From IMG/VR virus record IMGVR_UViG_3300016665_000105, positions 1-47,446 of that record: a stretch of 47,446 nucleotides of DNA; one strand, 5' to 3'. This DNA is from a virus (taxonomy: Duplodnaviria > Caudoviricetes). Below are positions 29,700 to 47,368 of the stretch, piece by piece. Both the position numbers and the translations under genes were made by a program. The notes below the pieces were generated by a model, which saw nothing but the letters and a program-made list of their open reading frames with translations, was not told the DNA's origin and did not search any database. Position 1 is the first letter of the stretch; each line of letters starts with the position of its first letter.

Positions 29700-30773
29700 A
29701 TGTCTCTTCCGTATATTCCCGGTTGGTGGGATACAATCTCGCAAAATGCACAGCGTTTGGCGCAGCAGCTTCCGCAAAGCATTGAGCCTCAGCGTGTAGC
29801 GGAGCGTCAGTTTCAGCAACTTGTTCAGCAGAATCCTATGCTTATGCAGGAGTTTGCGAACATGGACCCCGCTACACGGGAGATGATGTCACAAGCTATG
29901 GGCATGAAGACTATGCCTGAGACTTTGACTAAGCTTCCAAAGGGGCGCAAGCTGAAGGCAGAAGAGGAGATGGATGCGTTTCGCTCTTCTCTATCTCCTG
30001 AGATGCAGCAGCGGATGTATCTTACACAGCTTGGCCTGAAGCCTGAGAGTGAATACAAGCTTGAAAGAACGGGAAAGGAACTTGATATTGCAGGCAAGGT
30101 GACTGAGATCGAAGGGCAGAAGCAACGCAATCTGCTGAGTGGTTTGCAGATTCGTGATGCTGAACGTAACGAGGCTGACATCCTCAAGGCTTCAAAGAAG
30201 TACCCTGAGCTTGCTGGCATTAACATCAACAATCTTGCCCGAGATATTGTACGCACTAATCAGCAAGTTGATCCGAATCTGATTACTGCTATCACTGCAA
30301 ATCCCGGAGCAAAGGTACTGTTTGAGAAGGCTATAGCTTCTCAGCAGATGAAGTATGAAGGTGACCTTCGCGCACAGCTAGCTAAGATGCGGACTCCACA
30401 AGACAAGAATAACCTTGCGATGGAACTTCTCCGCACTCTGCAAGCACAAGGCGCGTCGCTGGAGAATCAGCTCGATCAACTCAACGTTGAGCAAAGACTC
30501 CACGCTGATAATCCAATGAACATGCGAGTTCCCTTTCCGGGTGCGGAGCGTGTTACAGCACTGCAAGCACAGCTTGCTGAGAACACCAAGAAGATTGGAG
30601 AGTTGTATAATAGCCTTCTTGCTGGGGCTGACATTAATACTGGCGCCCCTACTGGTACTCCAGCGCCTGTTGTTCGTGGTGGTACCGTTGGTCCTCTTGA
30701 TACAGAGAATCGTCTTAACAATTTCCGCAAGCAGCTTGGCATGGACTATTTTGGAGGTAACGCAATTCCATGA
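29700..30773 (+). CDS. internal virion/ejection protein
   Basis: GGAGG SD before ATG 29700; helical coiled-coil composition. Confidence 0.7.
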   Translation: MSLPYIPGWWDTISQNAQRLAQQLPQSIEPQRVAERQFQQLVQQNPMLMQEFANMDPATREMMSQAMGMKTMPETLTKLPKGRKLKAEEEMDAFRSSLSPEMQQRMYLTQLGLKPESEYKLERTGKELDIAGKVTEIEGQKQRNLLSGLQIRDAERNEADILKASKKYPELAGININNLARDIVRTNQQVDPNLITAITANPGAKVLFEKAIASQQMKYEGDLRAQLAKMRTPQDKNNLAMELLRTLQAQGASLENQLDQLNVEQRLHADNPMNMRVPFPGAERVTALQAQLAENTKKIGELYNSLLAGADINTGAPTGTPAPVVRGGTVGPLDTENRLNNFRKQLGMDYFGGNAIP

Positions 30774-33700
30774 CCGGACCAGCCATCTCTCTTGATTCTA
30801 TCGAAGAGCGGATGGTGCGGCGACTGATGGATATGGGAGCTACGGACGAAGAGATTCGTATGCTTGTTGCGGAGCGTCGTCAGCAGCGCAACAACATGAT
30901 TCCTCGCACGGAGTCTCCCATTCCATTCCGCGCACCTCCTCCGGGGATGGAGCTATCCCCTTCTTTGCCACGGCTTAAGCCTTCTAGCGAACAAGTCAAT
31001 ACTGGAATTGTTGAAGGTGCAAAGGTTGGTGCGAAGAATATGCTGGATCTCCTTCGCATTGGAACTGGTGGTCCTGTTGGGGCTATGGATGTTGCAGTAT
31101 CCCGTGCTGTTTCTCCTCGCGTAGCTCCAGAAGCTGAGACTACTCCGCAAAAGGTTGGACAGTTTATCGGACAGACTGCTGCGGAACTTCCAGCGTACAT
31201 GCTTGGCGGTGCGGCTGCGCGTGGCATTGGATCTATGCTTGGAGCTGGCGTAAAGAATCCCTTCCTCAAGGCAGTCCTTACGCGATACGTTGATGGTGCA
31301 GGGTTCTGGAAGAACACGGCAGCTGCTGTGCCGATGAATATGGCGGAAGGGCTAGCCACAGAGTTTGCACTGCATCCTGAGAACGTAAGCACACCTGATC
31401 GTATTATCCGTACCGCCATCGCAAGTTCTGCTGGCAGCATCTTCGACGGATATGCTGGTGCAAAGCTGACGCAGCAAGCTATTCGTCAAGCTGAGACTGC
31501 TGCTCAAGCAAAGGCTGCGTATGATGCGTGGCGCGCAGGTATGGCGGAAAAGGCAAAGATCGTCGGACAGCAAGGCGTTGAGAACATGCAACGCATGCAA
31601 GCTGTAAAGTCCACGATAAAGCGTGCTGACGAACTTTTCGCACAGCAAGCACAGCAAGCTGCTGGTCCGATGCCGACTGCGTTGGATCTTGGTATGCAAC
31701 AAGAAGGTAAGATTGGCATGACGGAAGCGCAGCGTCAAGCTGTACTTCGTGGCGAGAGCGGCGCAGATCTTCCTACTGCTGGACAGATCAGCACAGGGAA
31801 GGATCTTGAGATTGATCTTGAAGTTGAAAGAGCTTTGCAAGCTGAACTTGATAAGAAGATTCTATCGCTTGAAGGTATCAAGGCTCCAGATCCAAAAGAA
31901 GATCTTCTAATTTGGCCAAAGAAGAAAGACAAGCCTGAGCTTGATTCAATCGAAGAAGCTTATAATCGTGGGATGCAAGCTCGTCTTGATATGTATCTTA
32001 AAAATGTCAGCAAGGCTCCCATTGAGTCTGAGATGAACTTTATGGTTGATCCATCGGAGGTTGTTATCTTCAACCAAGGAGGAAGAGCTTCCGATAATAT
32101 CAACATGGGTGCCGGGCTTATCGTAGATAAGGAAGGCAATCCTGTTATCTCAGGAGATCCTAATCGTGGATTGATGACAGCAGAAGAGCTTCAAGAGTAT
32201 GCTGATATTCTTTCTACGTTTGGGCGCACTACCGATGATGCAGCGAAGGCTGCAAGGATTGCTGAAGTTCAGCAGTCTCTTGATTTCTTTGCAACCATCC
32301 TCACAAAGGAAGGGGCAGCTCGTAGTCCAAGAACGCAGAAGAAGTATCTTGCTAAGTTGAGCAATGACTTCTATGAGTTGCTTGAACTTCCGGGTGCGCT
32401 CGATAAGAGGATCAGAAGGACGCCCGTTGAAAAGGGAGAACCGCTAACTGATCTTGAGTTCGATCTTGCAAACTTTTCTAAGAAGAAGAAACCAAAGCAA
32501 GTTGCTGCCCCAGAACCTGAAGTCGGTGCGCCGAAGCGTTTGCTTGAAGTGCTTCCTCCGAAGGTTGCGGAACCAAAGCCGAAAGCTCCTGACATCTTGA
32601 AGCCTCGCGTTCCGTTTGGAAATGTCGGGGATGCTGTGGATATTGGACCGCGGTTGCCTACGCCAGAAGATCTTGAAGTTGCTCTCAAGGTTGATCTTGC
32701 TGAAGAGGCAATGCAGCAAGCACAGCCTCGTATGAATGCTGTCGGTCCTGTCGAGCAAGTTCCTGTTGCAGAGGGAAGTGCGACGGTTGTGCAGCCTCCT
32801 GCTGCCGTGCCTTCTTCTGCACAGAACAACGGTCCTCCGATAGTTTCTCCTCCGAGTCCACAATATAATCAAGTCGTACAAAAGACTTCATCCTCACTCG
32901 TCACGCCGCTGGGCGGAAAGCAAGAAGCCAAGCGTACTGCGAGCGAGCAGATGTTGCATATTCGACAGAAGCTACAAGATCGCTTCATTCCGATTCGTGA
33001 GTGGTCGCAGGAAGCGTATGACATCCTGAGCAACAACGGCGCAAGTCGTCGAGCTGCACAGAATGCTCTTCGCAACGATGGTGGGCTGTTGCTTCCTGTC
33101 GTGGATGCGAACGGAAAGTGGGCTGGTAAGACTGAGGTTGTTGAAGGTATGCCGATGAAGAAGATCATGAATCTCGCAGGCACTCGCCTGAATGAGCTTG
33201 ATGCTCTTCTCGTTGCAAAGCGTACCCTTGCACAGCCACACTATGCGACTGGTATGACGGAGGCTGAAGCAAAGATCATCGTCGATCAGTTGAAAGATGA
33301 TGTCATTATGCAGCAGCTTGCTGGTGAATATCGCAAGACGATGAACTTCATGCTTGACTATGCTGTTCGTCTTGGACGCATCAATCCCAAGCTTGCTGAA
33401 AAGTGGAAGACTCTTGAGTACGTTCCCCTTCCGCGTGAATTCAATATCAACAAATGGCACAGATTCTACGAGCAGCGTCGTGGCTCCGTGCGACAGATCC
33501 GCAACATCTGGGAAACTACGTCCGATCAGATGTTTGCAAACATTGAGCGAGCGCAGAGAAACTATGCACTTGCACAGCTAGCAGAGCAAGCAAGACTTGA
33601 TCCTGCTAAGTTTGCTGACATCATGACTCCGGTGCCCGGACAGATTGACAAGGAAATCTTCAAGGATGAACTTGCTCAATTTAAGGGTCTGGGAGCTACG

Positions 33701-35413
33701 GATGAAGAAGCGTTGGAACTTGTCGAGCTGATGTACAACGGTGCGCTCGATCAGTCCAATAGAACTGTTGTGGTGTTCCACGGAGGTAGGCCGCAACGTT
33801 ATCGCGTGAACGAGGCCATACAGGTCGCGCTGGATTCTATGAATCCTATGGAACTCAGCACGGTGCAGTATGCTCTATCACAGATCGGTCGTCCTATCCG
33901 TGCAACGACTGGTGCTGCGCTTGATCTCTCACTCGTTGGTCCAGTCTCCGATATTCTTCTTGCTGCTGCGAACTCTCCGGGTCCGCTAAACGCAATGAAG
34001 ACTGTTGGTAATTCCATTGCGGCAACGTGGCATATCTTCAGCACTACGCCGATGGGAACTAAGCTGGGCCTGACGCCAAGCCAGAAGTATATGCAAGCCG
34101 TTGGTGCTGGCCTTGGCTTTGGCGGACGATTCAAGCCTGATATTCCCGGTCAGGGCATCAGACAGAAAACATTTGATACGGTTGGCGAAGCATTCTCTAG
34201 CTTCCTAACTCCGTTGAACAACGCAGCTCGCCTTGGTCTGTATCTTACTCAGATGCAACGAGGCATGAATCCAGTCGAAGCTGCTGCGTTTTCCAATAAG
34301 GCACTAGGAAACTGGAATACGGTTGGCTCTTCGATGCGAGCGTGGGCCATGATGACAGAGTTCTTTAACGTGGGTATGCAAGGTACAGCCGCTGCTGCGT
34401 CTACGTTCAAGAGAATTGGAATCAACCCCGCAAACATTACAGATCCACAGAAGTTCTTGACACAGCTCGCGAAGAACGAAGGTCACCTTGCTGCATTCTT
34501 GACGGTTGGTGTTGGTGGTATCACGCTGCCTACGCTATACTTCTTGCATGCAAGCAAGGACGACGATCAGATCAACGCTCTTCGCAAAGCGAATAACTAT
34601 AACTACTGGTACTGGCGTGATTCGGATGGCGAAGTTGCACGGATGAAGAAGCCGGGCTGGTGGCTGGGTGCGATGTTCGGATCTAATATCGAAGCCATGC
34701 TTGATGGATTTGAGAAGGAAGAGAGAAGCAGACTCGTTCAGTCTTACGTTGATGCTTTCTCTTTTAATCCCATTCCCATTATCATGCAGACTGGCTTGGG
34801 CCTTGGGTTCGATGCTCGTAATCCTCTGGCTGCTGCGCGTGGTGGGGATAAGATTCCTATTGTTCCTCGTGGACAAGCGGACGTTATCCCACAAGCACAA
34901 GGCGGACCAGAGACTAGCAACATTGCAAACATAGGAAAGCAAGCCGGGATTTCTCCATACAAGATTGATTACTTCCTCGATCAGTTCCTCGGCGTGGATG
35001 GTTCCGCTATTCTTAAGATCGTGACTGGTGGTGTGCAAGGAATGGAAGGTCGTGTTCCTATTCTTGGACGCTTCGATGTTCGTCCCGGTCAGCAGACGGA
35101 AGGATCGTTGAAGTTCTACGATGATCTTGATAAGTCTAGAAAGTTCCAGAATACGATCAGAGAATATCAAATCAAAGGCGACGAAAAGGGATTGTATAAG
35201 TTCGTCGCAGAGAATCAAGAATACTATAACATGTATCCCAAGCTGCTTAAGCAAGCAGAGAAGATTGGTAAGATCAACATGCTGCTTCGTAACATTGCTA
35301 CCGACGAAGGGATGACGAAGGAAGCAAAGATCGAAGCTACTAAGTTCTATAAGGGTGTCCTCGATGAGTTCTTCGTTGAGTATGCCAAGATGAGAAAAGA
35401 GATGGTGCAATGA
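30770..35413 (+). CDS. large internal virion protein (1547 aa), probable LPD38-like C-terminal domain
   Basis: GGAGG SD; QDRFIPI, EFFNVGMQG, YWYW...RMKKP, SPYKIDY, LKFYD motifs; last gene of virion block. Confidence 0.75.
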   Translation: MTGPAISLDSIEERMVRRLMDMGATDEEIRMLVAERRQQRNNMIPRTESPIPFRAPPPGMELSPSLPRLKPSSEQVNTGIVEGAKVGAKNMLDLLRIGTGGPVGAMDVAVSRAVSPRVAPEAETTPQKVGQFIGQTAAELPAYMLGGAAARGIGSMLGAGVKNPFLKAVLTRYVDGAGFWKNTAAAVPMNMAEGLATEFALHPENVSTPDRIIRTAIASSAGSIFDGYAGAKLTQQAIRQAETAAQAKAAYDAWRAGMAEKAKIVGQQGVENMQRMQAVKSTIKRADELFAQQAQQAAGPMPTALDLGMQQEGKIGMTEAQRQAVLRGESGADLPTAGQISTGKDLEIDLEVERALQAELDKKILSLEGIKAPDPKEDLLIWPKKKDKPELDSIEEAYNRGMQARLDMYLKNVSKAPIESEMNFMVDPSEVVIFNQGGRASDNINMGAGLIVDKEGNPVISGDPNRGLMTAEELQEYADILSTFGRTTDDAAKAARIAEVQQSLDFFATILTKEGAARSPRTQKKYLAKLSNDFYELLELPGALDKRIRRTPVEKGEPLTDLEFDLANFSKKKKPKQVAAPEPEVGAPKRLLEVLPPKVAEPKPKAPDILKPRVPFGNVGDAVDIGPRLPTPEDLEVALKVDLAEEAMQQAQPRMNAVGPVEQVPVAEGSATVVQPPAAVPSSAQNNGPPIVSPPSPQYNQVVQKTSSSLVTPLGGKQEAKRTASEQMLHIRQKLQDRFIPIREWSQEAYDILSNNGASRRAAQNALRNDGGLLLPVVDANGKWAGKTEVVEGMPMKKIMNLAGTRLNELDALLVAKRTLAQPHYATGMTEAEAKIIVDQLKDDVIMQQLAGEYRKTMNFMLDYAVRLGRINPKLAEKWKTLEYVPLPREFNINKWHRFYEQRRGSVRQIRNIWETTSDQMFANIERAQRNYALAQLAEQARLDPAKFADIMTPVPGQIDKEIFKDELAQFKGLGATDEEALELVELMYNGALDQSNRTVVVFHGGRPQRYRVNEAIQVALDSMNPMELSTVQYALSQIGRPIRATTGAALDLSLVGPVSDILLAAANSPGPLNAMKTVGNSIAATWHIFSTTPMGTKLGLTPSQKYMQAVGAGLGFGGRFKPDIPGQGIRQKTFDTVGEAFSSFLTPLNNAARLGLYLTQMQRGMNPVEAAAFSNKALGNWNTVGSSMRAWAMMTEFFNVGMQGTAAAASTFKRIGINPANITDPQKFLTQLAKNEGHLAAFLTVGVGGITLPTLYFLHASKDDDQINALRKANNYNYWYWRDSDGEVARMKKPGWWLGAMFGSNIEAMLDGFEKEERSRLVQSYVDAFSFNPIPIIMQTGLGLGFDARNPLAAARGGDKIPIVPRGQADVIPQAQGGPETSNIANIGKQAGISPYKIDYFLDQFLGVDGSAILKIVTGGVQGMEGRVPILGRFDVRPGQQTEGSLKFYDDLDKSRKFQNTIREYQIKGDEKGLYKFVAENQEYYNMYPKLLKQAEKIGKINMLLRNIATDEGMTKEAKIEATKFYKGVLDEFFVEYAKMRKEMVQ

Positions 35414-35467: not shown

Positions 35468-35827
35468 TCACTCACGCCCCACCTCCTGTTCGGCGGCTTT
35501 GACGGCTGCGCGGATAGCAGTGTATGCGTCCAATCGGCTAAGGTACTCGAACGAATCACCCAAATCAGTGACCGCATCAACAATCGCATCACTCGGCTCC
35601 CGCAGCGCGGCGAGGATGCGCGCGGCCTGTGCGTGTTCATTGGTGATTGGGCATCCGTTTTCGCAGTACGCATCGAAGATGGATGCGGCCTCTGTGTCTC
35701 CCAATGTTTCCGCAGCGATACGCATCTGGTTCCAAAACTGTGACGGCTTGTCGTCGTAACGGTGTGCGCCATACCAGATCACTTCGCGTAGCACTTCCTC
35801 TGGATTCGTCAACTCGCTCACGCTCAT
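35468..35827 (-). CDS. hypothetical protein (119 aa)
   Basis: GGAGG SD, ATGA overlap. Confidence 0.7.
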   Translation of the reverse strand: MSVSELTNPEEVLREVIWYGAHRYDDKPSQFWNQMRIAAETLGDTEAASIFDAYCENGCPITNEHAQAARILAALREPSDAIVDAVTDLGDSFEYLSRLDAYTAIRAAVKAAEQEVGRE

Positions 35828-37032
35828 GCTCCCTCCGTAAACTCAGGAACCCAGAAGTCATACTCCTTCTCTCCGTTCTCGTATCGCTCTTTGTACTTCA
35901 ACATCTTAGCATCGCATGCAAACTGAAGAAGATCGTTGAGCATCCTAGGCTCCGCGCTGTGCATGAAGGATCGAATGACTTCGGAACGAGGAACGACTGC
36001 CTTCGTAAAGAAGTTCATGGTTCTAACGAAAGCCACGATCTTATCAATCTCAGTCGTGTACCTGTTCTTGCCGACACCCGTGAAGATCTTTTCGAGTCCT
36101 GCTTCCGTTGTTTCGATAGCGTGGACCCCGAACGCCCAGTCTTCCGCTGTGATAACAAGCTCATCCTTAGTAGCAATGCTGTGTATCTGGGCGAGCTTTG
36201 CAACGTGAGTCTTCTTTCTGTTGAGGTATCCGCCGAGCTTATCGTTCTTGATAAGATGTTGCGGATGGGCTTTTGCACTCCACTCTTTAGCAGCCTTAAG
36301 TCCGTCGTCGGAGAAGGAAAACTCACCGGCCAGTTCCTTTGAGATGTGGATGAGATCCACGAGAAGATCCTTTTCAAGCTGCTCGAACGGACCCTCTACG
36401 TCATCGAAGAACATCTTGTTGATGCGCGGTCCTTCTTCGTACACAAAGATAACGCGAGATGCAAAGCCTCCGGTGATAACACCTTCTGGCATGTTATCCG
36501 TGATCCAACCCGGAGTCGTCGCGGAGAAGAAGTTGATGCAAGGCTTCTCTAGGAATGCAGTTCCTTGACTCTTCGTGGCTGCTTCATAGTTCATGCTTCC
36601 ATCGAACATGGAAGTGAAGAACTCGTAGATACCGTTACGATCCTTGCCAGCCTTCTGGAAGATGTCAGAGAACTCACCGATGACAAGATACATGGAGGCA
36701 TCGGCAGACTGCTGAAGCTTTTCGATGATAGCTTCCTTCGTGAATACGGAAGGACCAGACTTGATTCCGTCCACTTGATCGAGTAGGACGCGAGATCCAT
36801 TGTCGATGGTCGTGGTCTTTCTTGCACCCGGAGGCGCGACGAACATGACGTAGAGATATGGATAGCAGGACCACAAGCCCAAGTATTTCTTCGGAATCCA
36901 GACACGACGACGGACGACGGAAGAGAGAGTGAAGATACCAGACCAGAAGACGTAGGACTCAGGAGCGTCTGTGCGAGGGAGAATATAGTCTCGATAAGTA
37001 AGAAGCCAGTTTTCGCAGCGACGCTTTGTCAT
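35824..37032 (-). CDS. DUF3987/YfjI-like P-loop NTPase, putative replicative helicase
   Basis: PxLYVMFVAPPGARKTT Walker A, IGEF Walker B, ATTPGW, GGFASR arginine finger. Confidence 0.75.
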   Translation of the reverse strand: MTKRRCENWLLTYRDYILPRTDAPESYVFWSGIFTLSSVVRRRVWIPKKYLGLWSCYPYLYVMFVAPPGARKTTTIDNGSRVLLDQVDGIKSGPSVFTKEAIIEKLQQSADASMYLVIGEFSDIFQKAGKDRNGIYEFFTSMFDGSMNYEAATKSQGTAFLEKPCINFFSATTPGWITDNMPEGVITGGFASRVIFVYEEGPRINKMFFDDVEGPFEQLEKDLLVDLIHISKELAGEFSFSDDGLKAAKEWSAKAHPQHLIKNDKLGGYLNRKKTHVAKLAQIHSIATKDELVITAEDWAFGVHAIETTEAGLEKIFTGVGKNRYTTEIDKIVAFVRTMNFFTKAVVPRSEVIRSFMHSAEPRMLNDLLQFACDAKMLKYKERYENGEKEYDFWVPEFTEGA

Positions 37033-37035
37033 GAG

Positions 37036-37854
37036 TTAGTCTCTCCACTTTTCCATCTCCTTCCATCGTTCTCCCACTTCAGCATCGACGGGGATGGTGA
37101 ACTGCTCTCCCTTGATGATGAGCGGACGACGAAGAAGGCTGATGACTTGGGGAACGATTTCGTTTACGAGTTGTATGGGAACTTCAAGCATCACGGAATC
37201 GTGAGCTGTGTTATTCATCACGATCTCACCCTTGCTAGGAAGCACGATGTCTTCATAGATCGCAAGGTTGCCGCCGCGCACTCCGACTTCGGGTTGGATG
37301 GCTCCGTGCATATGATCTGCGACGGTGCTTTGTGGCTCGAAAGCAGTCATCTCTTTCTTCAGATCATCTCCGTAGATTCCCCAGAACTTACGTCGGAATC
37401 CATACACAGTCTGCATCGTGCGAGTCGTGCTTGCGATGTAGTCGATCTCACTCCACCAGTTCTGGAGATTGAACGTACCTAACCACTTCGCATGGAATCG
37501 CTTCGCATCCGCAACGGAGATGGAGATCATGCCTTCCTTGTTGATGAACTCCGCGATCTTGAAGGGACCAGTACGATAGTTCCCTGCGTGGTTCATCTTC
37601 TTTCCGACGTATCGCTGCTCTTCGGAGATCAAGCCTGCATACTTCTTCTTGCCGGGAATGGTGAGATCCACGGCGATGTCGAAGATGCCCGTTGCTGAGA
37701 AGGAGTGGAGATCTCCGCCGTCAAGCTCGCGCTTCATGTTGGAATCGCTAGAGAGATACGCTACGATCCAAGCTTCGGCGGCGGAGAGATCGAATGCACA
37801 AAGCATCTTCCCCTTCGGAGCAACGTACATCGAACGGAGAGGGAGCTTAGTCAC
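37036..37854 (-). CDS. polA: DNA polymerase family A, C-terminal part (motifs A, B, C)
   Basis: AFDLSAAE, DLHS, RYVGKKMNHAGNY, GFRR, PQSTVAD, AHDS; GTG start with AGAGG SD. Confidence 0.92.
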   Translation of the reverse strand: MTKLPLRSMYVAPKGKMLCAFDLSAAEAWIVAYLSSDSNMKRELDGGDLHSFSATGIFDIAVDLTIPGKKKYAGLISEEQRYVGKKMNHAGNYRTGPFKIAEFINKEGMISISVADAKRFHAKWLGTFNLQNWWSEIDYIASTTRTMQTVYGFRRKFWGIYGDDLKKEMTAFEPQSTVADHMHGAIQPEVGVRGGNLAIYEDIVLPSKGEIVMNNTAHDSVMLEVPIQLVNEIVPQVISLLRRPLIIKGEQFTIPVDAEVGERWKEMEKWRD

Positions 37855-38050
37855 GGGGTTCCTCTTGTTCCATGAATAGGAGCGGATACTCGATTAGCTC
37901 GTTATGATAAGAGCGAGAAGTTCTGAACATCGCATGCCACTCCTCTTTCGTCATCGGCTCAGGCAAGCCGCCAGCCTCAGCTTCTTCTAGCGTGAGGCGG
38001 CGACGATTCGGACCTGTGCCTGTGGGGATACGATCTCCGCTCTTAATCAT
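37847..38050 (-). CDS. hypothetical protein (67 aa) between the two polA halves
   Basis: 8-nt overlaps with both neighbours. Confidence 0.65.
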   Translation of the reverse strand: MIKSGDRIPTGTGPNRRRLTLEEAEAGGLPEPMTKEEWHAMFRTSRSYHNELIEYPLLFMEQEEPRD

Positions 38051-38354
38051 GCAAGTACGTCAGCCTTTCAAGGTACCACATAGCCTTCTGAAGATCCTCA
38101 AGGGGCTTGCCCTTCTTGTCGTAGCGCCAGAGATACTTCATCGCATTGCCACGCAGGAAGCCTTTGTACATCTCGCGGGACATGGAAGCTTCGATTGCTT
38201 CGATGCAATCGTCGCCTCCGTAATGCGGTGGATTGTTGACGGCTTCGTAAGATGAAGCAGGAGCGTTCGCTGTGTCGGCTCCGAAGTTGTTGAGCTGCGT
38301 TGGATCTTCCATACGCATATTCTTCAGATCACCCTTCACATGAATGTAGCTCAT
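38043..38354 (-). CDS. DUF3310 protein (T7 gp1.7-like putative nucleotide kinase)
   Basis: VNNPPHY...CIEAI...GNAMKYLWRY..KG...DLQKA.WYL. Confidence 0.9.
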   Translation of the reverse strand: MSYIHVKGDLKNMRMEDPTQLNNFGADTANAPASSYEAVNNPPHYGGDDCIEAIEASMSREMYKGFLRGNAMKYLWRYDKKGKPLEDLQKAMWYLERLTYLHD

Positions 38355-39961
38355 ACACTCTCCCGTGGAATGGTTTGTCCGTTCAGACCCGTGCCATCAT
38401 ACCAAGATCCTGCACTCCAACGTCCAGTCTCAGTACCCCAGAACTTATACCAAGAACGTACACGATTATCGAGTGATACGTCGATGTTGATATAAGAAGA
38501 CAGAAGCTTATCGTATCCACGAATGCGAAGGATCAACTTCAACGCAGCAAGCTTGATACTCCACGGCTGCTTTCCGCTCTCCGTCTTCAGATCTTGCAGC
38601 TTCTTCTCCACAGTTCCCATCAGCGCAACGATGGCATCCTCTCCGCTGGTCACGTTGCCTTCGCTCGTAGTCTTGATGGGGAGACCTAGCGTATCGTAGA
38701 GAAAGGAATTGATCTTGGAGTGCTGCGATACTTTGAAGAGTTCAACGTTGAACATCTGCTGGATACCGATGAAGACCATGTAATCCTTGTCACGCTTCTG
38801 CTCTACGATATTGCGGAGTGCGAGCCTACGCTCTTCATCAACGAGCAATCCAGTATAGGAGATGTGCTTTGCAAGAGCGATCTGCTTCATCTTATACTGG
38901 TAATACTTCCACGATTGCTCATCGAACTCTAGCTGTTGTCCACGCTGTACGCGAGCCGTAGCTACGACATCCTTGCAGTTGTAGATCCCAAGCTTTGCTC
39001 GGTCGATACGATCCGTCGTTTCCTTTCCATCGTCCTTGTAGTAGTTCATGTCAGTATACATGGACGTACAGTAATCAAGACCGATAGGAAGCTCAGGCTG
39101 TAGTACATGCTGCGCCACCATCGTATCATAGTCCCATCCGTTCACCGTAAAGCCATTCTGTTCTAGCATGATCGTATCGAACATGCCGTTATGAAATGTC
39201 TTCGGGATGTCAGACTCCAAGAGCATGGAGACTACGCGACGAAAGTTCGGACCGATGGCGTTGCTCTCAAGGTTTCCATCGTTGAAGAAACACACCGCAT
39301 CGCACGGACTCCAAGCGAATCCGATGCAGCGAATGAAGGATGTGTTCTTCTTTGTCTCGATGTCAACGTATAGACGTTCAGCAGACAGCAGCGTCGGAAG
39401 CAAACCTTCCATCGTGAAGGAACTAGGATCAACGATGAAGTTGAACTTAGGCTCAACCCAACCATGTTCAGAGATAGCTTTTGCTTTCTTGATGTCATTC
39501 AAGAAGCCGGGAGTCTGAGCCCCATCACGCAACACGATGTGAGGAGCAACGGTAGGAATAACCCACGCATCTCCTACCTTATATGCAGAGCCACGATGCT
39601 TGTCCACTCCATCGAATCCAAGCAAGAAGTCCATCGCATGATTGCCCATCGCAACGATGACTTTATGCTTACTCTTCTTAAGATACTCTCGTAGTTCCTT
39701 GCGAGACTCTTCGAGTTGCCACGTTGTGTGTGACTTCTTGAAGTCATTCTTCGCCGGCTGATAGTTCAGCACGTTGCCTACGCGAACATCTGCCCTGTCA
39801 ATGCCGCACTCAGAGAGAGCTGCGTCGAATAGTTCGCCAGCTCTTCCGACAAGAGGACGCTGCAAAGAATCTTCTGTGCTACCGGGAGCTTCCCCCAAGA
39901 AGAAAAGCTTTGCGTCCTCCGGTCCCTCATGCGGGACTTTTCTTTCTGAGACTAATTTCAT
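38351..39961 (-). CDS. polA: DNA polymerase family A, N-terminal part: UDG family-4-like domain, 3'-5' exonuclease, thumb and first palm strands
   Basis: GEAPG..ED...P.VG.AG; Exo I DIET, Exo II HNGMFD, Exo III YNCKD; ends TETGRWS...LNGQTIPRESV. Confidence 0.92.
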   Translation of the reverse strand: MKLVSERKVPHEGPEDAKLFFLGEAPGSTEDSLQRPLVGRAGELFDAALSECGIDRADVRVGNVLNYQPAKNDFKKSHTTWQLEESRKELREYLKKSKHKVIVAMGNHAMDFLLGFDGVDKHRGSAYKVGDAWVIPTVAPHIVLRDGAQTPGFLNDIKKAKAISEHGWVEPKFNFIVDPSSFTMEGLLPTLLSAERLYVDIETKKNTSFIRCIGFAWSPCDAVCFFNDGNLESNAIGPNFRRVVSMLLESDIPKTFHNGMFDTIMLEQNGFTVNGWDYDTMVAQHVLQPELPIGLDYCTSMYTDMNYYKDDGKETTDRIDRAKLGIYNCKDVVATARVQRGQQLEFDEQSWKYYQYKMKQIALAKHISYTGLLVDEERRLALRNIVEQKRDKDYMVFIGIQQMFNVELFKVSQHSKINSFLYDTLGLPIKTTSEGNVTSGEDAIVALMGTVEKKLQDLKTESGKQPWSIKLAALKLILRIRGYDKLLSSYINIDVSLDNRVRSWYKFWGTETGRWSAGSWYDGTGLNGQTIPRESV

Positions 39962-40187
39962 CGAACTGTCGCCTGAGGGTTTGTGTGTAGGAACGAGCGA
40001 CGGAGAGTTGTGTCTCTAGCCTTGAGATCTGCTGCTTGAGATTGTTGATCTGTTCAATGTGTTGCTCGCGTTCTACGAGAAAGTTTTCGATGCGCTTCCC
40101 TTCTTCATAGAGATGGTTGTCTGTCTCAGTCCAACGCACAGCGAGCTGCATCAAAGTCTCATGAATATCAAAGGTCTTCTTCTTCAT
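39927..40187 (-). CDS. hypothetical coiled-coil protein
   Basis: Heptad pattern; start uncertain (40187-40199). Confidence 0.65.
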   Translation of the reverse strand: MKKKTFDIHETLMQLAVRWTETDNHLYEEGKRIENFLVEREQHIEQINNLKQQISRLETQLSVARSYTQTLRRQFDEISLRKKSPA

Positions 40188-40272
40188 ATTGGTCATCAAA
40201 AGGAGGAGAGAGCTGGGCTATGACGTACAGCATGAACCACAGCACAGCTAGACAGAGGAGTCCGAGCCACAT
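40168..40272 (-). CDS. 34-aa membrane peptide MWLGLLCLAVLWFMLYVIAQLSPPFDDQYEEEDL, not in ORF track
   Basis: GAGG SD; one TM helix and acidic tail; overlaps both neighbours. Confidence 0.55.
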   Translation of the reverse strand: MWLGLLCLAVLWFMLYVIAQLSPPFDDQYEEEDL

Positions 40273-40910
40273 ACGAACCTCGATATGTACGGGAAGTGAG
40301 GATCAATGGCTTCGGCACAAAGAAGTGCAAGATCACGATGCTCCTTCTGCGTAGAAGGATCGGTCCGCACTTGGATGTAGTGCATCCAGCTACGAAGAGA
40401 ACCAGTAACGTACATCGAAGATTCCGTCATGCCTTCGGGCAGGATGGTGCGAGCCACTTCCTTTGCGATGCCAGCTTCGATAGCTTGTTCGTATCCGAGA
40501 GACACGATGTTCATCACATTACGCTGGATGTCGGACCAGATACGATGTGTGTCAGGGTCTTGCGTAGGCAAAGAGTTCTGACGGTTCTTCTTGTCTTGCA
40601 TACGAGCAGGACGGAAGTGCAGCTGGCCCGTGTCCACCTTCGCATAGCGTTGCGAGAACTCTTGGAAGGAGAAGCTGCGATGACGCAGCATCTGCCTCGC
40701 AATGTCCCGCGTCGTCATGATGAAGAGCGTCATGTGTACCATCTCAAACGGGGACCAGTGCTTGTGTTCGATGAGATAGTCTAGAAGCTTTTCGTGCGGT
40801 GTGCCTTGATTCTTAGGGTTTGAGATTCTTGCATAGTATGCAACTTGCTCTGCAAGAGTTATCTCAGAAGGAAGGAAATCGGAGAGGGAGACTACTTCTG
40901 CGTAGTTCAT
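40248..40910 (-). CDS. thyX: flavin-dependent thymidylate synthase
   Basis: HWSPFEM, RQMLRHRSFSFQEFSQRY, KEVAR.ILP, GSLRSW.HY, TQKEHR. Confidence 0.97.
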   Translation of the reverse strand: MNYAEVVSLSDFLPSEITLAEQVAYYARISNPKNQGTPHEKLLDYLIEHKHWSPFEMVHMTLFIMTTRDIARQMLRHRSFSFQEFSQRYAKVDTGQLHFRPARMQDKKNRQNSLPTQDPDTHRIWSDIQRNVMNIVSLGYEQAIEAGIAKEVARTILPEGMTESSMYVTGSLRSWMHYIQVRTDPSTQKEHRDLALLCAEAIDPHFPYISRFVCGSDSSV

Positions 40911-41329
40911 GCTCCCATCCTCTGTTCCCACTTGTGCTTCAACTCGACGACGCGAGGAAGCTTTTGATATGCTTCGCGAATGATGAGAAGCGCGGCCTCT
41001 GCGGTGACTTCGTGAAACCCAGCCTCACTCTGCACGAACAAGCCCGGAACTTCCGTCGTCGGAGCCGTGACGATAGCGATGACAGCGCGCTCCGTTAGCA
41101 TGATGAGTTTGTTTCCCTCATCTGCATCATTCACTACCATGCCGGAGTAGGGATTGAAGACAACGTAATCCCCAACCTTGATCTCTTGCACTTCAGGTCC
41201 GACAGCCTTCACGATTCCTTGATCGCTACGATCCTTCGTAGATTCAGGACGGATGATGAGTGATCCATACCAAGTATCCGGATCATCAAGCGCAGCGACG
41301 AGGATGTTATCACGACGAGGGATAAGCAC
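40907..41329 (-). CDS. groES: GroES/Cpn10-like co-chaperonin with C-terminal extension
   Basis: LIPRRDNILV, GIVKAVGP, IKVGDYVVF..YSG, ERAVIAIV. Confidence 0.85.
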   Translation of the reverse strand: MLIPRRDNILVAALDDPDTWYGSLIIRPESTKDRSDQGIVKAVGPEVQEIKVGDYVVFNPYSGMVVNDADEGNKLIMLTERAVIAIVTAPTTEVPGLFVQSEAGFHEVTAEAALLIIREAYQKLPRVVELKHKWEQRMGA

Positions 41330-41510
41330 GTTCGATCTCCTTTAGTCCTAGTTGAACTACTTGATCTGCTTCATCTTTCAGGATCTTTGCGACCGCAAGA
41401 TACAGAGGATTCCTACTGGGGTGGCTCTCCAAATACAAAGCTGATCTGTTCAGAGCCTCCGCCATGCTGAACCTGTCGAGAGCTATTGTCTTTTGTGTAT
41501 CGGATGCCAT
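41310..41510 (-). CDS. hypothetical protein
   Basis: GAGG SD before ATG 41510 (alternative start 41537). Confidence 0.55.
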   Translation of the reverse strand: MASDTQKTIALDRFSMAEALNRSALYLESHPSRNPLYLAVAKILKDEADQVVQLGLKEIERAYPSS

Positions 41511-41533
41511 CCTTGTATCCTCTTTGATATGCG

Positions 41534-41728
41534 TCAACCAGCAACGTTTCTACTAGTGGGTTCAATTCCAGCTGCTTCAGCAATTCGAAGAAGCTTTGCT
41601 TTTCTTGCTTCAAAAAATAGGAGTTGCTCATGTAGTTCTCCCATGCGTTGAGTTATCTTGTCTATTTCGTCGAAGAGGTGATCTTGGAGGATACGTTCAA
41701 TGTTCGTTTCGATTACAGGACTAGTCAT
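41534..41728 (-). CDS. hypothetical coiled-coil protein (64 aa)
   Basis: First ORF after tRNA. Confidence 0.6.
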   Translation of the reverse strand: MTSPVIETNIERILQDHLFDEIDKITQRMGELHEQLLFFEARKAKLLRIAEAAGIEPTSRNVAG

Positions 41729-41756
41729 GATATATTTGGTTGAGGTTTGTACAGCA

Positions 41757-41827
41757 TAGCCCCGGCGGGAATCGAACCCGAGTAGCCTGATCCAAAGTCA
41801 GGTGCATTACCACTATGCTACGGGGCA
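41757..41827 (-). tRNA. tRNA-Gln (anticodon TTG), CCA not encoded
   Basis: TGCCCCG/CGGGGCT acceptor, GCAT-AGTGGTA-ATGC D arm, CCTGA-CTTTGGA-TCAGG anticodon arm, GGTTCGATTCC T loop. Confidence 0.92.
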
Positions 41828-41831
41828 AGAT

Positions 41832-42028
41832 GCAGGGAAAGCTTAGTGCAGGATAGCGTTCGCGTTCTCTGAGGGGGAGTCCATACTATCCTTTAGCGAG
41901 CGAGGAAGTACACCGAAAACTCTTGTCTCGCAACTCACACTAAGCTTCCGTGACAGGGGCGGAGTTGTCAGGTCGAAGGCATCTGCCAAATGTCTTCTTC
42001 GGTTTTACCGGCATGTCACGTTCCCTGC
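41832..42028. ncRNA. candidate structured ncRNA (multi-way junction with pseudoknot), class not recognised
   Basis: At least seven nested helices fill the ssb-tRNA gap (see findings). Confidence 0.65.
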
Positions 42029-42037
42029 TATGCTACA

Positions 42038-42523
42038 TTAGAACGGGCGGCAGCCGCGATAATTCTGGTACTGCTTATCGCCCTGAGTGCGGATGTCCAC
42101 GTTCACGATGAGGCGCGAACGAACGAGATCCACATACGCAGAACCCAGCGCACCGTTCTCCACATCCACGGAGAGATCCAGATCACCGAAGTTCTGACGG
42201 AACTCCTCATCCGCTTCCGCAGTACCGGGACGAATACCCTTGCAGCACATCACGAAACGAAGCAGCCGATCAAACGAAGTCTCGTCGTCGCCAACGATGA
42301 AGTCGATGTTCAGCGGCTTGCCAGCGAACTCCGCATCGCCAGCAGCATCCGCAACGATGCGAGTACCGAAGGCAACGATGTGCATCTTCTCGCCAGCGCG
42401 CTTGCCATTCTTAATGTCAACGACGCGATACTTGGCGGAGATAACTTCCACTTCGTATTCGTTAGCGGGAGCGATGAAGATAGTCGAGGAGAACTTGTCG
42501 AGATTCGGCTTGAAGATAGACAT
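42038..42523 (-). CDS. putative single-stranded DNA-binding protein (DUF669-like OB fold)
   Basis: PANEYEVEV.SAK...G.K pattern and C-terminal Y.N; follows Sak4-like and exonuclease genes. Confidence 0.65.
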   Translation of the reverse strand: MSIFKPNLDKFSSTIFIAPANEYEVEVISAKYRVVDIKNGKRAGEKMHIVAFGTRIVADAAGDAEFAGKPLNIDFIVGDDETSFDRLLRFVMCCKGIRPGTAEADEEFRQNFGDLDLSVDVENGALGSAYVDLVRSRLIVNVDIRTQGDKQYQNYRGCRPF

Positions 42524-42529
42524 GAGAAG

Positions 42530-43351
42530 TTAGCCTGAGGAAGAAGTTTGCCATGCGTGGATACGAGAGAACACTTGCTTTGCCGTGACGTCACGTTCAG
42601 GATTCTTGAAGAGTCCACCCCAGCGAGTCTTCGCCATGATGCCACCTTCCGATTCCGTCACGAACTCACGCTTCACGTTTGCACCAGAGCCCACGGTACG
42701 GATATACCATAGCATATCGAAGATACCGGGCATGGCATCTGGTGTATCAGTCCCCGTGAAGAGAGGCTTTACTGCGATTATGTTGTTCGTTCCCTCCTTG
42801 CGATAGAGTCTTTCGTGAGCGCAGACGATACAGTTCTTTCCTTCACTACGAAGACCATCCGTAAGCTGACGAAGGAAAGACTCAACCAATCCCATCTCTG
42901 TACCGAAGTCTGCGATGGTTGGGATGATGATGTCCTTGAACTTACCAGACTGTGCGTTGCCGGAAGTCTTAGACTTTCCAGAGATGCCGTTCAACTCGAT
43001 AGCCTTGTTCCGTGCAGCGATGCGCGTCGAGTTGATGTCGTCGATGACGATGCCTGACCAATCGTTCTTAGTAGCTGGTGCGAGCAGTCCGTCGATCTGA
43101 TTACGAAGAGTATCGAACATCTTCGGCATCGTGGGAGAATCATCGGGATGCAACTCCACGATGAAAGGATCTGTTCCCACCTTATCCTTGAACAGCTTCG
43201 ACTTCAACGTGATGATACCGTTGCGATCCGTGAGTACGATCCAGTCATCTCCTGCACCAGCAGCCCAGAACGTCTTGCCCGTACCTGCTGCACCGTACAG
43301 CATCATGCAAGTTCCTTCGATGCGCTTGTCTTGGCTCAGTCTCGTCAGCAT
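42530..43351 (-). CDS. Sak4-like AAA_24 ATPase / ssDNA-annealing recombinase
   Basis: LYGAAGTGKT, IVIDDI, VCAHE, FD..WY, AKTR. Confidence 0.85.
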   Translation of the reverse strand: MLTRLSQDKRIEGTCMMLYGAAGTGKTFWAAGAGDDWIVLTDRNGIITLKSKLFKDKVGTDPFIVELHPDDSPTMPKMFDTLRNQIDGLLAPATKNDWSGIVIDDINSTRIAARNKAIELNGISGKSKTSGNAQSGKFKDIIIPTIADFGTEMGLVESFLRQLTDGLRSEGKNCIVCAHERLYRKEGTNNIIAVKPLFTGTDTPDAMPGIFDMLWYIRTVGSGANVKREFVTESEGGIMAKTRWGGLFKNPERDVTAKQVFSRIHAWQTSSSG

Positions 43352-43352
43352 A

Positions 43353-43478
43353 TTAATCCTTATCAGGTCTGAGGATGTATAACAGAATCAAGGCAAAGTA
43401 AGCAACGGCCAACCAAGCTGCGACTGCGAGTCCAGCAACGAAGATGTTCAGTAGAGTTTGGAAGATTGCGTTCTGCAT
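43353..43478 (-). CDS. 41-aa membrane peptide (MQNAIFQTLLNIFVAGLAVAAWLAVAYF...), not in ORF track
   Basis: AAGGA SD; fills the gap exactly; long hydrophobic helix. Confidence 0.6.
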   Translation of the reverse strand: MQNAIFQTLLNIFVAGLAVAAWLAVAYFALILLYILRPDKD

Positions 43479-43480
43479 AC

Positions 43481-44386
43481 TTATTCCTTGATTGCTTGTT
43501 GGTCAACTTCTTCATGCTTCCAAGGCTGGAGAAGATACTGAGTGCGAAGCATGTTCTCCATAGAAGCTTCGGATGGCTGAGTGCAGACTTGCCGGTAGTC
43601 GCAGAAGGAACAGGATACTTCGTGCATAGGCCAGACATCTGCTTCACGACACGCTGCCATCTGCTTGTGAATGAATAGCTGTTCATCAAGCCATCGCTTC
43701 ACTTGCACCATCGTGCGAGATGACGGGATGTTCTGAACGTCAGGCCCGACAGTCTTCGTGTTGTAGATAGCGGTGAAGAGAACTCCGTCGATCACGCGAT
43801 TCGGATAGCCGTTCTCATCCATGCCATGCTGCAAGCAAGATGCAGCGTAGATGTAACGGATAGCCTGATCGTTAGGCTCAAGACCCTGCTTGAAATACTG
43901 TATCTGTTTCGATGTAGTCTTCCAGTCACGAATCCAGATACGTCCATTCCAGCGGATGAGCTGATCCCATCTTCCTCCGATAGACACGCCATCCGGAAGA
44001 ACGAAAGAGAACGGTTGCTCGATAGCTTCGACACGGATGATGCCGTTCTTCTTCTCTTCATTGTACATCGCAGACAGCTTTGCGACAGTAAGAATGAAGC
44101 GTTCCTTGCTCTGAAACTCAAAGCTCGGATTCGTCGGTGAACGAAAGAGCTTGATTGCTGTTTGTGCTGCTGCTCCCGGATCTCCCGTTTCGTAGAGGAT
44201 CTCAAGATACTTATGCAACGCTGAACCCCAAGCAAACACAGACTGCCACTTCCCCTCAGGTGGAGTGCGACCAAGGACCATACGATAGAAGTATTTCCGT
44301 GGGCATTCCTTGAAACACTTCGTCGCTGTGTGATCCATGCTTTCAGGTTCAAAGCGTGGCAATGTCGGGAGCAGTTTCTTTGTCAT
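43481..44386 (-). CDS. PD-(D/E)XK exonuclease (Cas4/AddB-like, four-Cys cluster)
   Basis: CPRKY, GSALH, GRWD, DWKT, Q...Y, CSFCDYRQVC. Confidence 0.9.
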   Translation of the reverse strand: MTKKLLPTLPRFEPESMDHTATKCFKECPRKYFYRMVLGRTPPEGKWQSVFAWGSALHKYLEILYETGDPGAAAQTAIKLFRSPTNPSFEFQSKERFILTVAKLSAMYNEEKKNGIIRVEAIEQPFSFVLPDGVSIGGRWDQLIRWNGRIWIRDWKTTSKQIQYFKQGLEPNDQAIRYIYAASCLQHGMDENGYPNRVIDGVLFTAIYNTKTVGPDVQNIPSSRTMVQVKRWLDEQLFIHKQMAACREADVWPMHEVSCSFCDYRQVCTQPSEASMENMLRTQYLLQPWKHEEVDQQAIKE

Positions 44387-46894: not shown

Positions 46895-47368
46895 TCATTT
46901 TACCGGCCAGAAGTATTCGATGTCATCGTAGTTCTCCGGAACATCCGGGAACTTTGGAAGATAGAACTCTGCATCTTTGCGTACAAGATTGCAACGATGC
47001 GAGAAGGTTAGCTTGTCACGAAGAAGGGGATCTGCCCACCAGAAAGGCACGATGTATTCGTGTCGCTTGAGGCGCTTCATGAAGAACTCGCCAAGCTTAC
47101 GATTGTCTAGGATTCCTCTGTTGTCACACTCCATGCAAATGTGCAACGCATACATGCAAAGCACATGCTCGTATCCTCTCCACATCTTCGTCGCTGGATG
47201 ATTGCGCCATCCAATCGCAGGACCGATGACGTTTTCATCTGCGTCAAGACGAATGCCACGCGCAGCGTTGTAGATTTGCATACACTCAACGCGTTGCTTG
47301 TTGAGTCTGCGAGAATCTAAGGAGCGAGCGCAGTCAAAGAATGTACGATGCGGTAGAAAAGTTTGCAT
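46895..47368 (-). CDS. pyrimidine-dimer DNA glycosylase/endonuclease V-like protein (MSMEG_6728-type)
   Basis: MQTFLP...LD..RL.KQRVE..QI, GW.NHPA..MW.GY, SHR.NL.RKD..FY, Y.WP. Confidence 0.88.
   Translation of the reverse strand: MQTFLPHRTFFDCARSLDSRRLNKQRVECMQIYNAARGIRLDADENVIGPAIGWRNHPATKMWRGYEHVLCMYALHICMECDNRGILDNRKLGEFFMKRLKRHEYIVPFWWADPLLRDKLTFSHRCNLVRKDAEFYLPKFPDVPENYDDIEYFWPVK

Follow-up and report, generated by a model that had tools for sequence, protein, structure and literature searches.

How does a family A DNA polymerase (PolA) operate when its gene is cut, inside the palm, into two open reading frames (ORFs) with other genes between them? The question is raised by a 47,446-nt stretch of viral DNA (Duplodnaviria; Caudoviricetes; IMG/VR virus record IMGVR_UViG_3300016665_000105, positions 1 to 47,446), hereafter "the window", which probably comes from a circular contig of 47,476 bp of freshwater source and represents a phage genome with terminase, portal and capsid genes, as found by profile scans of its ORFs. 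The upstream polymerase ORF (N-half) ends ...TETGRWS...LNGQTIPRESV-stop, and the downstream one (C-half) begins 496 nt later with TKLPLRSMYVAPKG...AFDLSAAE; the interval is wholly covered by a DUF3310 gene and a 67-aa ORF, and the ORF junctions across the locus overlap (ATGA, ATGATTAA and GTGACTAA). An earlier note, made from the letters of this DNA, had described these ORF ends, the coding gap, the overlaps and an AGAGG Shine-Dalgarno (SD) sequence before the C-half, all of which were found as claimed, and had proposed a PolA of two subunits. Our analysis leads to the same answer: the locus very probably encodes a non-covalent two-subunit PolA from two genes. Both separately terminated genes would be translated from one transcript, likely by stop-start coupling, and their products would assemble non-covalently into one enzyme of Klenow fold whose thumb and palm belong to separate chains, the N-subunit giving the uracil-DNA glycosylase (UDG)-like domain, the proofreading exonuclease, the thumb and the TGR palm strand, and the C-subunit giving motifs A, B and C. 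This proposal is supported by a cut that stays fixed while the gap varies, by overlapping or nearly abutting ORFs in 9 of 61 split loci, by invariant residues and by single-chain relatives.

The two ORFs share out the hallmarks of family A between them, with the TGR motif on the N-half and motifs A (D..E), B (R...K...x...Y) and C (HD) on the C-half (in the window, D22 and E27; R81, K85, H89 and Y93 in the fingers; H218 and D219). As they match successive stretches of the PHROG 17 (PolA) profile (positions 476-988 and 995-1236, respectively), the halves are collinear and complementary. Predicted models match the Klenow fold: that of the window C-half, with a predicted local distance difference test (pLDDT) score of 94, finds Taq, Bst and Klenow polymerases by Foldseek with a template modelling (TM) score of 0.7, and that of a fused relative (P0126) reaches a TM score of 0.8 of the target. 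Exonuclease and polymerase catalytic acids are invariant in 44/44 split loci, the exonuclease residues in 39/39 fused relatives too, and R514 of the N-half TGR motif is likewise invariant. The statement that all catalytic motifs are intact thus holds for the exonuclease and the polymerase, but not for the UDG-like domain, whose motif-B His is Ala139 in the window (39545-39547, minus strand). This His is kept in 42/44 split loci and 36/39 fused relatives, and the Ala139 codon is unchanged in contigs of three other runs; the glycosylase of the window lineage, whose best PDB matches are family-4 UDGs, may be weakened or inactive.

Both halves are under purifying selection, with ratios of nonsynonymous to synonymous substitution rates (dN/dS) against two relatives (L019 and L020) of ~0.12-0.16 for the N-half and 0.06-0.07 for the C-half. 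Their evolutionary distances are correlated (r 0.81 vs 0.21 for the best of 999 permutations, n=44). At the C-half start, the SD duplex is stronger than at internal start codons in 50/60 loci, and in the window it amounts to -6.0 kcal/mol vs a median of -1.0 at internal start codons. One relative (L113) is a mosaic with respect to the window, with a synonymous distance (dS) of 0.12 in the C-half (96-97% DNA identity) and of 1.46 in the N-half (~61-88% per 100-nt window), and the switch of identity falls inside DUF3310; recombination in the gap can therefore exchange N-halves.

The split is a trait of the clade to which the window belongs, and its kind is known, a cut near this position being already in print for the phages MEP401 and MEP402 (PMC10580990). 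A protein search for relatives of the C-half, limited to 149-476 residues, returned 186, and a common start position is found in 49 aligned relatives, down to 42% identity. Scanning viral and metagenome contigs, and counting only loci whose stored DNA includes the N-half, yielded 106 dereplicated loci with both halves; 62 of them are split, all at the window's site, and the other 44 are joined there. A single branch (support 1.0) holds 44/44 full-length split loci in a FastTree tree of 85 full-length loci, from which it would follow that the clade arose by one ancestral fission, located in a surface loop that connects the TGR motif to motif A. The sister pair L048/L049 is joined at this site and cut instead between exonuclease and thumb, which is a further fission in this family, independent of the first. 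This exonuclease/thumb cut is seen in L048 (6227-8810), L049 (4736-8789, with the two genes 1.5 kb apart) and L168. A genome scan gave 12 loci, all on contigs of 3-51 kb binned in metagenome-assembled genomes of unrelated taxa; no host is proposed. Comparison of both halves by tblastn with 50,697 GenBank phages gave distant matches only (22-29% identity among the matches listed), and neither this comparison nor a structure search found a solved or cultured close relative of the window polymerase. Nothing on the split clade or on re-fusion was found in the literature, in a search whose coverage left out subscription journals and supplements.

What lies between the halves varies from locus to locus. 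The earlier note had suggested checking in homologues whether the break is fixed while the intervening genes vary, and so it is, with 62/62 breaks at the same site. One locus (L162), in which the N-half end looks frame-shifted, was left out of the gap and terminus counts, leaving 61. Gap length ranges from -44 nt (an overlap) to 2972 nt, the two ORFs overlapping or lying ≤9 nt apart in 9 loci, and the number of genes per gap is 0 in 10 loci, 1 in 33, 2 in 11 and 3-6 in 7. The 83 gap ORFs, picked by an automatic chain with a few wrong-frame picks, form 64 mostly unrelated clusters. Pfam names found in gaps are DUF3310, dATP/dGTP diphosphohydrolase, DHH, DUF4031, RyR and epimerase, and HNH, GIY-YIG, LAGLIDADG and intein families were absent from the 78 of the 83 scanned as a set (the window's two were scanned separately, and three wrong-frame ones were dropped). 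No mobile-element remnant was seen at the cut. DUF3310 sits in the gap of 8/61 split loci, all among the closest relatives of the window, and is therefore a passenger; the proposed co-translation with a nucleotide kinase is no feature of the split as such, and "nucleotide kinase" is only a PHROG label. The 67-aa ORF is a passenger too: it sits elsewhere in L004/L005 (in L004 a homologue with 78% identity over 50 aa lies upstream of thyX) and is missing from the gap of L113. The cut site is thus an ordinary intergenic slot, into which, after the cut, small accessory genes would come and go. The relative frames of the two halves are distributed 23/21/17 across loci. A fixed cut, together with gaps variable in length and content and the use of all three frames, excludes intron, intein and hop as a general mechanism for rejoining the halves.

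The cut falls in a loop at about E. coli residues 681-688, before the helix bearing R690, as seen when a fused relative is aligned with Klenow (numbers that we take as counted from D705). Across the two window genes, the proline lies 25 residues from the motif A Asp, vs 24 in Klenow and 18 in 42/43 measured distant single-chain relatives, and ~7 residues have therefore been gained at the new ends. The earlier note had seen essentially no loss or duplication at the break, a view that the added residues refine. They are patterned: after PR, the N-half has a hydrophobic residue at +3 in 61/61, Glu at +4 in 38/46 and a hydrophobic residue at +5 in 46/46 (46 being the loci that extend so far), giving a hydrophobic-Glu-hydrophobic end, and the head of the C-half shows Lys at -4 in 44/61 and hydrophobic residues at -3 and -1, giving overall Lys-hydrophobic-x-hydrophobic-Arg. 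With this alternation, strand pairing across the subunits is predicted for the new ends. N-half tails run for 3-53 residues after PR; 31/61 N-halves carry tails of at least 20 residues, all net negative, with 37% Asp/Glu. The window lineage has lost this long acidic tail. Such tails (L028, L036, L118, L129 and others) often end in AA, VA or AV. Acidic tails with these endings recall the docking tails of the SSB (single-stranded DNA-binding protein) type.

Single-chain relatives give a view of how the two ends may meet. A search for longer proteins returned two, P0123 and P0126 (44-45% identity), which keep the two patterned ends and connect them through a short loop, in one case via two residues. 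Each nests beside split relatives with a Shimodaira-Hasegawa approximate likelihood-ratio (SH-aLRT) support of 100, and a tree excluding both from the split clade is rejected by the approximately unbiased (AU) test (p 4e-87). Three state changes are enough, namely a single fission and two re-fusions if the tree is rooted on the fused outgroup. Both proteins look like independent re-fusions on the evidence of these trees, so that the halves would have been re-fused in at least two lineages. The AlphaFold model of P0126 (pLDDT 95) places KIEV and QKYP strands on both sides of an EG turn, a hairpin from which it follows that the new ends can be direct neighbours. A broader scenario, which we regard as speculative and rather doubtful, is a reversible cycle of fission and fusion, in which the palm cut grew a strand clasp and, in 31/61 members, a long acidic tail that might dock the primase-helicase or single-stranded DNA-binding machinery in an SSB-like manner; the cut would allow phages to exchange the subunit with UDG, proofreading and thumb while the catalytic one stays constant, and the chains would have been re-stitched at the hairpin tip in two lineages or more.

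Several points weigh against a two-chain enzyme and must be set beside this evidence. For the clade as a whole, what suggests such an enzyme are genes and models. Search patterns were built from split C-halves, and the 62:44 ratio of split to joined loci is not a census. The trees of the halves are not fully congruent, as 4/24 strong splits of the N tree contradict strong ones of the C tree. The 551-nt gap RNA folds better than 99/100 shuffles (z -2.5). P0123 and P0126 are single-member, single-contig records, examined as proteins; the strand call on P0126 comes from the DSSP letters of its model rather than from contacts, and the fused models would speak for single-chain folding only, AlphaFold leaning on known PolA folds. 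Furthermore, 15/61 N-halves end at +3, the window lineage among them, where the clasp would be minimal.

Among the alternatives, the one that survives best, although improbable, is that the halves act mostly apart or meet only transiently, the N-protein as a repair/proofreading unit and the C-protein with some other partner to grip DNA. Independent recombination agrees with it, as L113 shares the C-half, and not the N-half, with the window, and so does the confident folding of the C-half alone. It is opposed by the place of the thumb and of the invariant TGR motif, both in the N-half, since these elements bind the primer-template for the palm in the established PolA structure; the halves, moreover, always stand in order on one strand, and natural re-fusions exist.

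Removal of the gap as an intron from the mRNA, as guessed for MEP401/402, is very unlikely, even though phage polymerase genes are known to carry group I introns (PMC10580990) and the gap RNA of the window has the stable fold mentioned above. Such folding is within the range of coding controls (5/21 control windows at or below z -2), it is uneven along the gap (z of -2.3, +2.7 and -1.7 for its thirds), and the median z of 42 related gaps is -0.08. Rfam has no intron match within 36500-40500, where it gives 3 chance hits at E 0.4-4, and finds only tRNAs in six of the longest-gap loci; nine loci leave no room for an intron; and the N-half tails, being conserved as protein, are translated. Rfam, Pfam and terminus checks thus agree with the earlier report of no intron core, homing nuclease or intein ends. 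The chance that the halves become a single chain through ribosomal bypass or a frameshift is equally slight, in line with the low weight given to a hop before. In the window, Val is the last residue of the N-half and GTG the first codon of the C-half, and the ORFs overlap in some loci, as a recoding event might have it; nonetheless, GTA and GTG are unmatched codons, the last codon of the N-half matches a codon at the beginning of the C-half in only 5/60 loci, and the three frames, the tails of variable length and gaps of up to 3 kb all oppose a hop. A decayed gene or an assembly error, with nothing in its favour beyond the break itself, can be dismissed in view of the circular contig that is the likely source, the contig from an independent study (run X2) that spans 35826-38455 and crosses the whole gap, purifying selection, the invariant catalytic residues and the 62 split loci. 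Protein trans-splicing by a split intein is very improbable too: inteins do occur in the family (an intein-like motif-B insert is present in the C-halves P0124 and P0125), but the ~7 added residues at the window ends are far too few for intein halves and the acidic tails bear no intein signature.

A non-covalent two-subunit PolA has precedents of different closeness. In the OM43 phages MEP401/MEP402 (Zobellviridae), PolA is split and a small ORF separates the parts, which the authors considered a possible intron and left open (PMC10580990). These phages and Alcaligenes phage vB_Af_QDWS535 (OK172329) have, like the window, a family A polymerase whose cut comes after the TGR motif and before motif A, with a small ORF in the gap of MEP401 and abutting ORFs in QDWS535, and both are cultured. 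Unlike in the window, the MEP401/QDWS535 cut lies ~15 residues downstream (the motif A Asp is C-half residue 6 vs 22), and the MEP401 N-half (gp13) starts at the exonuclease, without UDG. MEP401 is absent from the 40 records listed, out of 72, as tblastn matches of the window C-half, all at ≤ ~25% identity. Compared by cut position and tblastn, not in a joint tree, the MEP401-type fission appears to be independent of that of the window clade. Cyanophages S-SBP1/S-TIP37 have a T7-like PolA split into exonuclease and polymerase, proposed to act as a two-chain enzyme (PMC10201439, PMC12695635), and Czernecki et al. described only such a split, as the first in PolA (PMC10201439). Their cut runs between domains, and its new termini are described as simply solvent-exposed, whereas that of the window runs within the polymerase domain, thumb and TGR staying with the exonuclease; the S-SBP1-type cut is the one shown by L048/L049. 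Single-chain UDG-PolAs (SPO1-like, SP15-like and N4-like) have the UDG-exo-pol order and the family-4 UDG motifs in common with the window (PMC10201439, PMC13697223), but are single polypeptides where the window has two genes, and the N4-like ones bear Phe at position B3 of motif B where the window family bears His. The word "split" is absent from the consulted portion of PMC13697223, which treats the solved UDG-PolAs as fused enzymes.

Other protein families also reassemble an essential enzyme from two genes without splicing, as proposed for the window. The split family B polymerase gp43A/B of Aeromonas phage 25/44RR co-purifies and is active (PMC2988022), the family B polymerase of PhiKZ (N+C), for which there is a cryo-EM structure, has its cut in the palm (PMC13648687), and the newly gained tails of the split NrdA of phage Aeh1 are needed for activity (PMC3045599). 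Several of these cuts are tied to a homing endonuclease, unlike the one described here, where none was seen among the 78 scanned gap ORFs.

The comparison answers the question left open for MEP401/402: an intron is not required for a PolA cut before motif A, of which a two-chain enzyme is the simplest reading. New here are the comparative case that rules out splicing and hopping, and the discovery of re-fused relatives, which indicate where the subunits meet. The site is a natural, evolution-tested split in the Klenow fold for which both split and re-fused counterparts exist, and is usable for split-polymerase engineering and the study of new subunit interfaces. On the other hand, surveys that use PolA as a marker, as well as annotation pipelines, will count the halves as fragments.

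The family is further distinguished by a His at motif B position B3 in 83/83 split and fused members (window motif B 37576-37614, minus strand), a position that we take to be E. coli 762. The usual residue there is Phe, Tyr or Leu. A word search for this His state gave nothing in the consulted text of two virioplankton PolA papers (PMC9069017, PMC6302109), supplements and figures not being covered. Motif B also contains an intein-like insert of ~300 aa in two stand-alone C-halves (P0124, P0125) and a fused relative (P0138), only that of P0138 matching LAGLIDADG_3.

The features of the locus are collected in Table 1.

Table 1. Features of the split polymerase locus in the window, with coordinates on the window.
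Feature	Position	Strand	Remarks
PolA N-subunit gene	38351..39961	-	536 aa; family-4 UDG-like domain, 3'-5' exonuclease, thumb, TGR motif, first palm strand
UDG-like domain, aa 10-146	39524..39934	-	Pfam PF03167, E 2e-17
3'-5' exonuclease domain, aa 182-339	38945..39418	-	Pfam PF01612; ExoI D200/E202, ExoII D262, ExoIII Y327/D331
DUF3310 gene, 103 aa	38043..38354	-	Pfam PF11753, E 4e-19; start overlaps N-subunit stop (ATGA)
67-aa ORF, no known family	37847..38050	-	passenger in gap
Shine-Dalgarno-like AGAGG	37861..37865	-	6 nt before C-subunit GTG
PolA C-subunit gene	37036..37854	-	272 aa, GTG start; Pfam PF00476, profile 141-381
Primase/helicase-like gene (DUF3987)	35824..37032	-	directly downstream; neighbour conserved in closest relatives

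Pfam and PHROG gave no match for the 67-aa ORF, and no second polymerase was recognised by them among the window ORFs scanned. Runs X2 and X4 have ~80 other nt (82 in X2) in place of the 3' end of the 67-aa ORF (window 37855-37936), up to the C-half start codon. A scan of 36900-40300 returned 2 promoter-like sites where 3.2 are expected, neither of them on the coding strand, and no terminator-like site in the gap. A replication module lies upstream of the polymerase (40248-44386, minus strand), with ThyX, a GroES-like protein, a Sak4-like AAA protein and a PD-(D/E)XK nuclease, and a pyrimidine-dimer glycosylase is found at 46895-47368. On the plus strand, 30770-35413 encodes a virion-side protein of 1547 aa that matches LPD38 weakly, at an E of 6e-05 that falls short of the curated cut-off.

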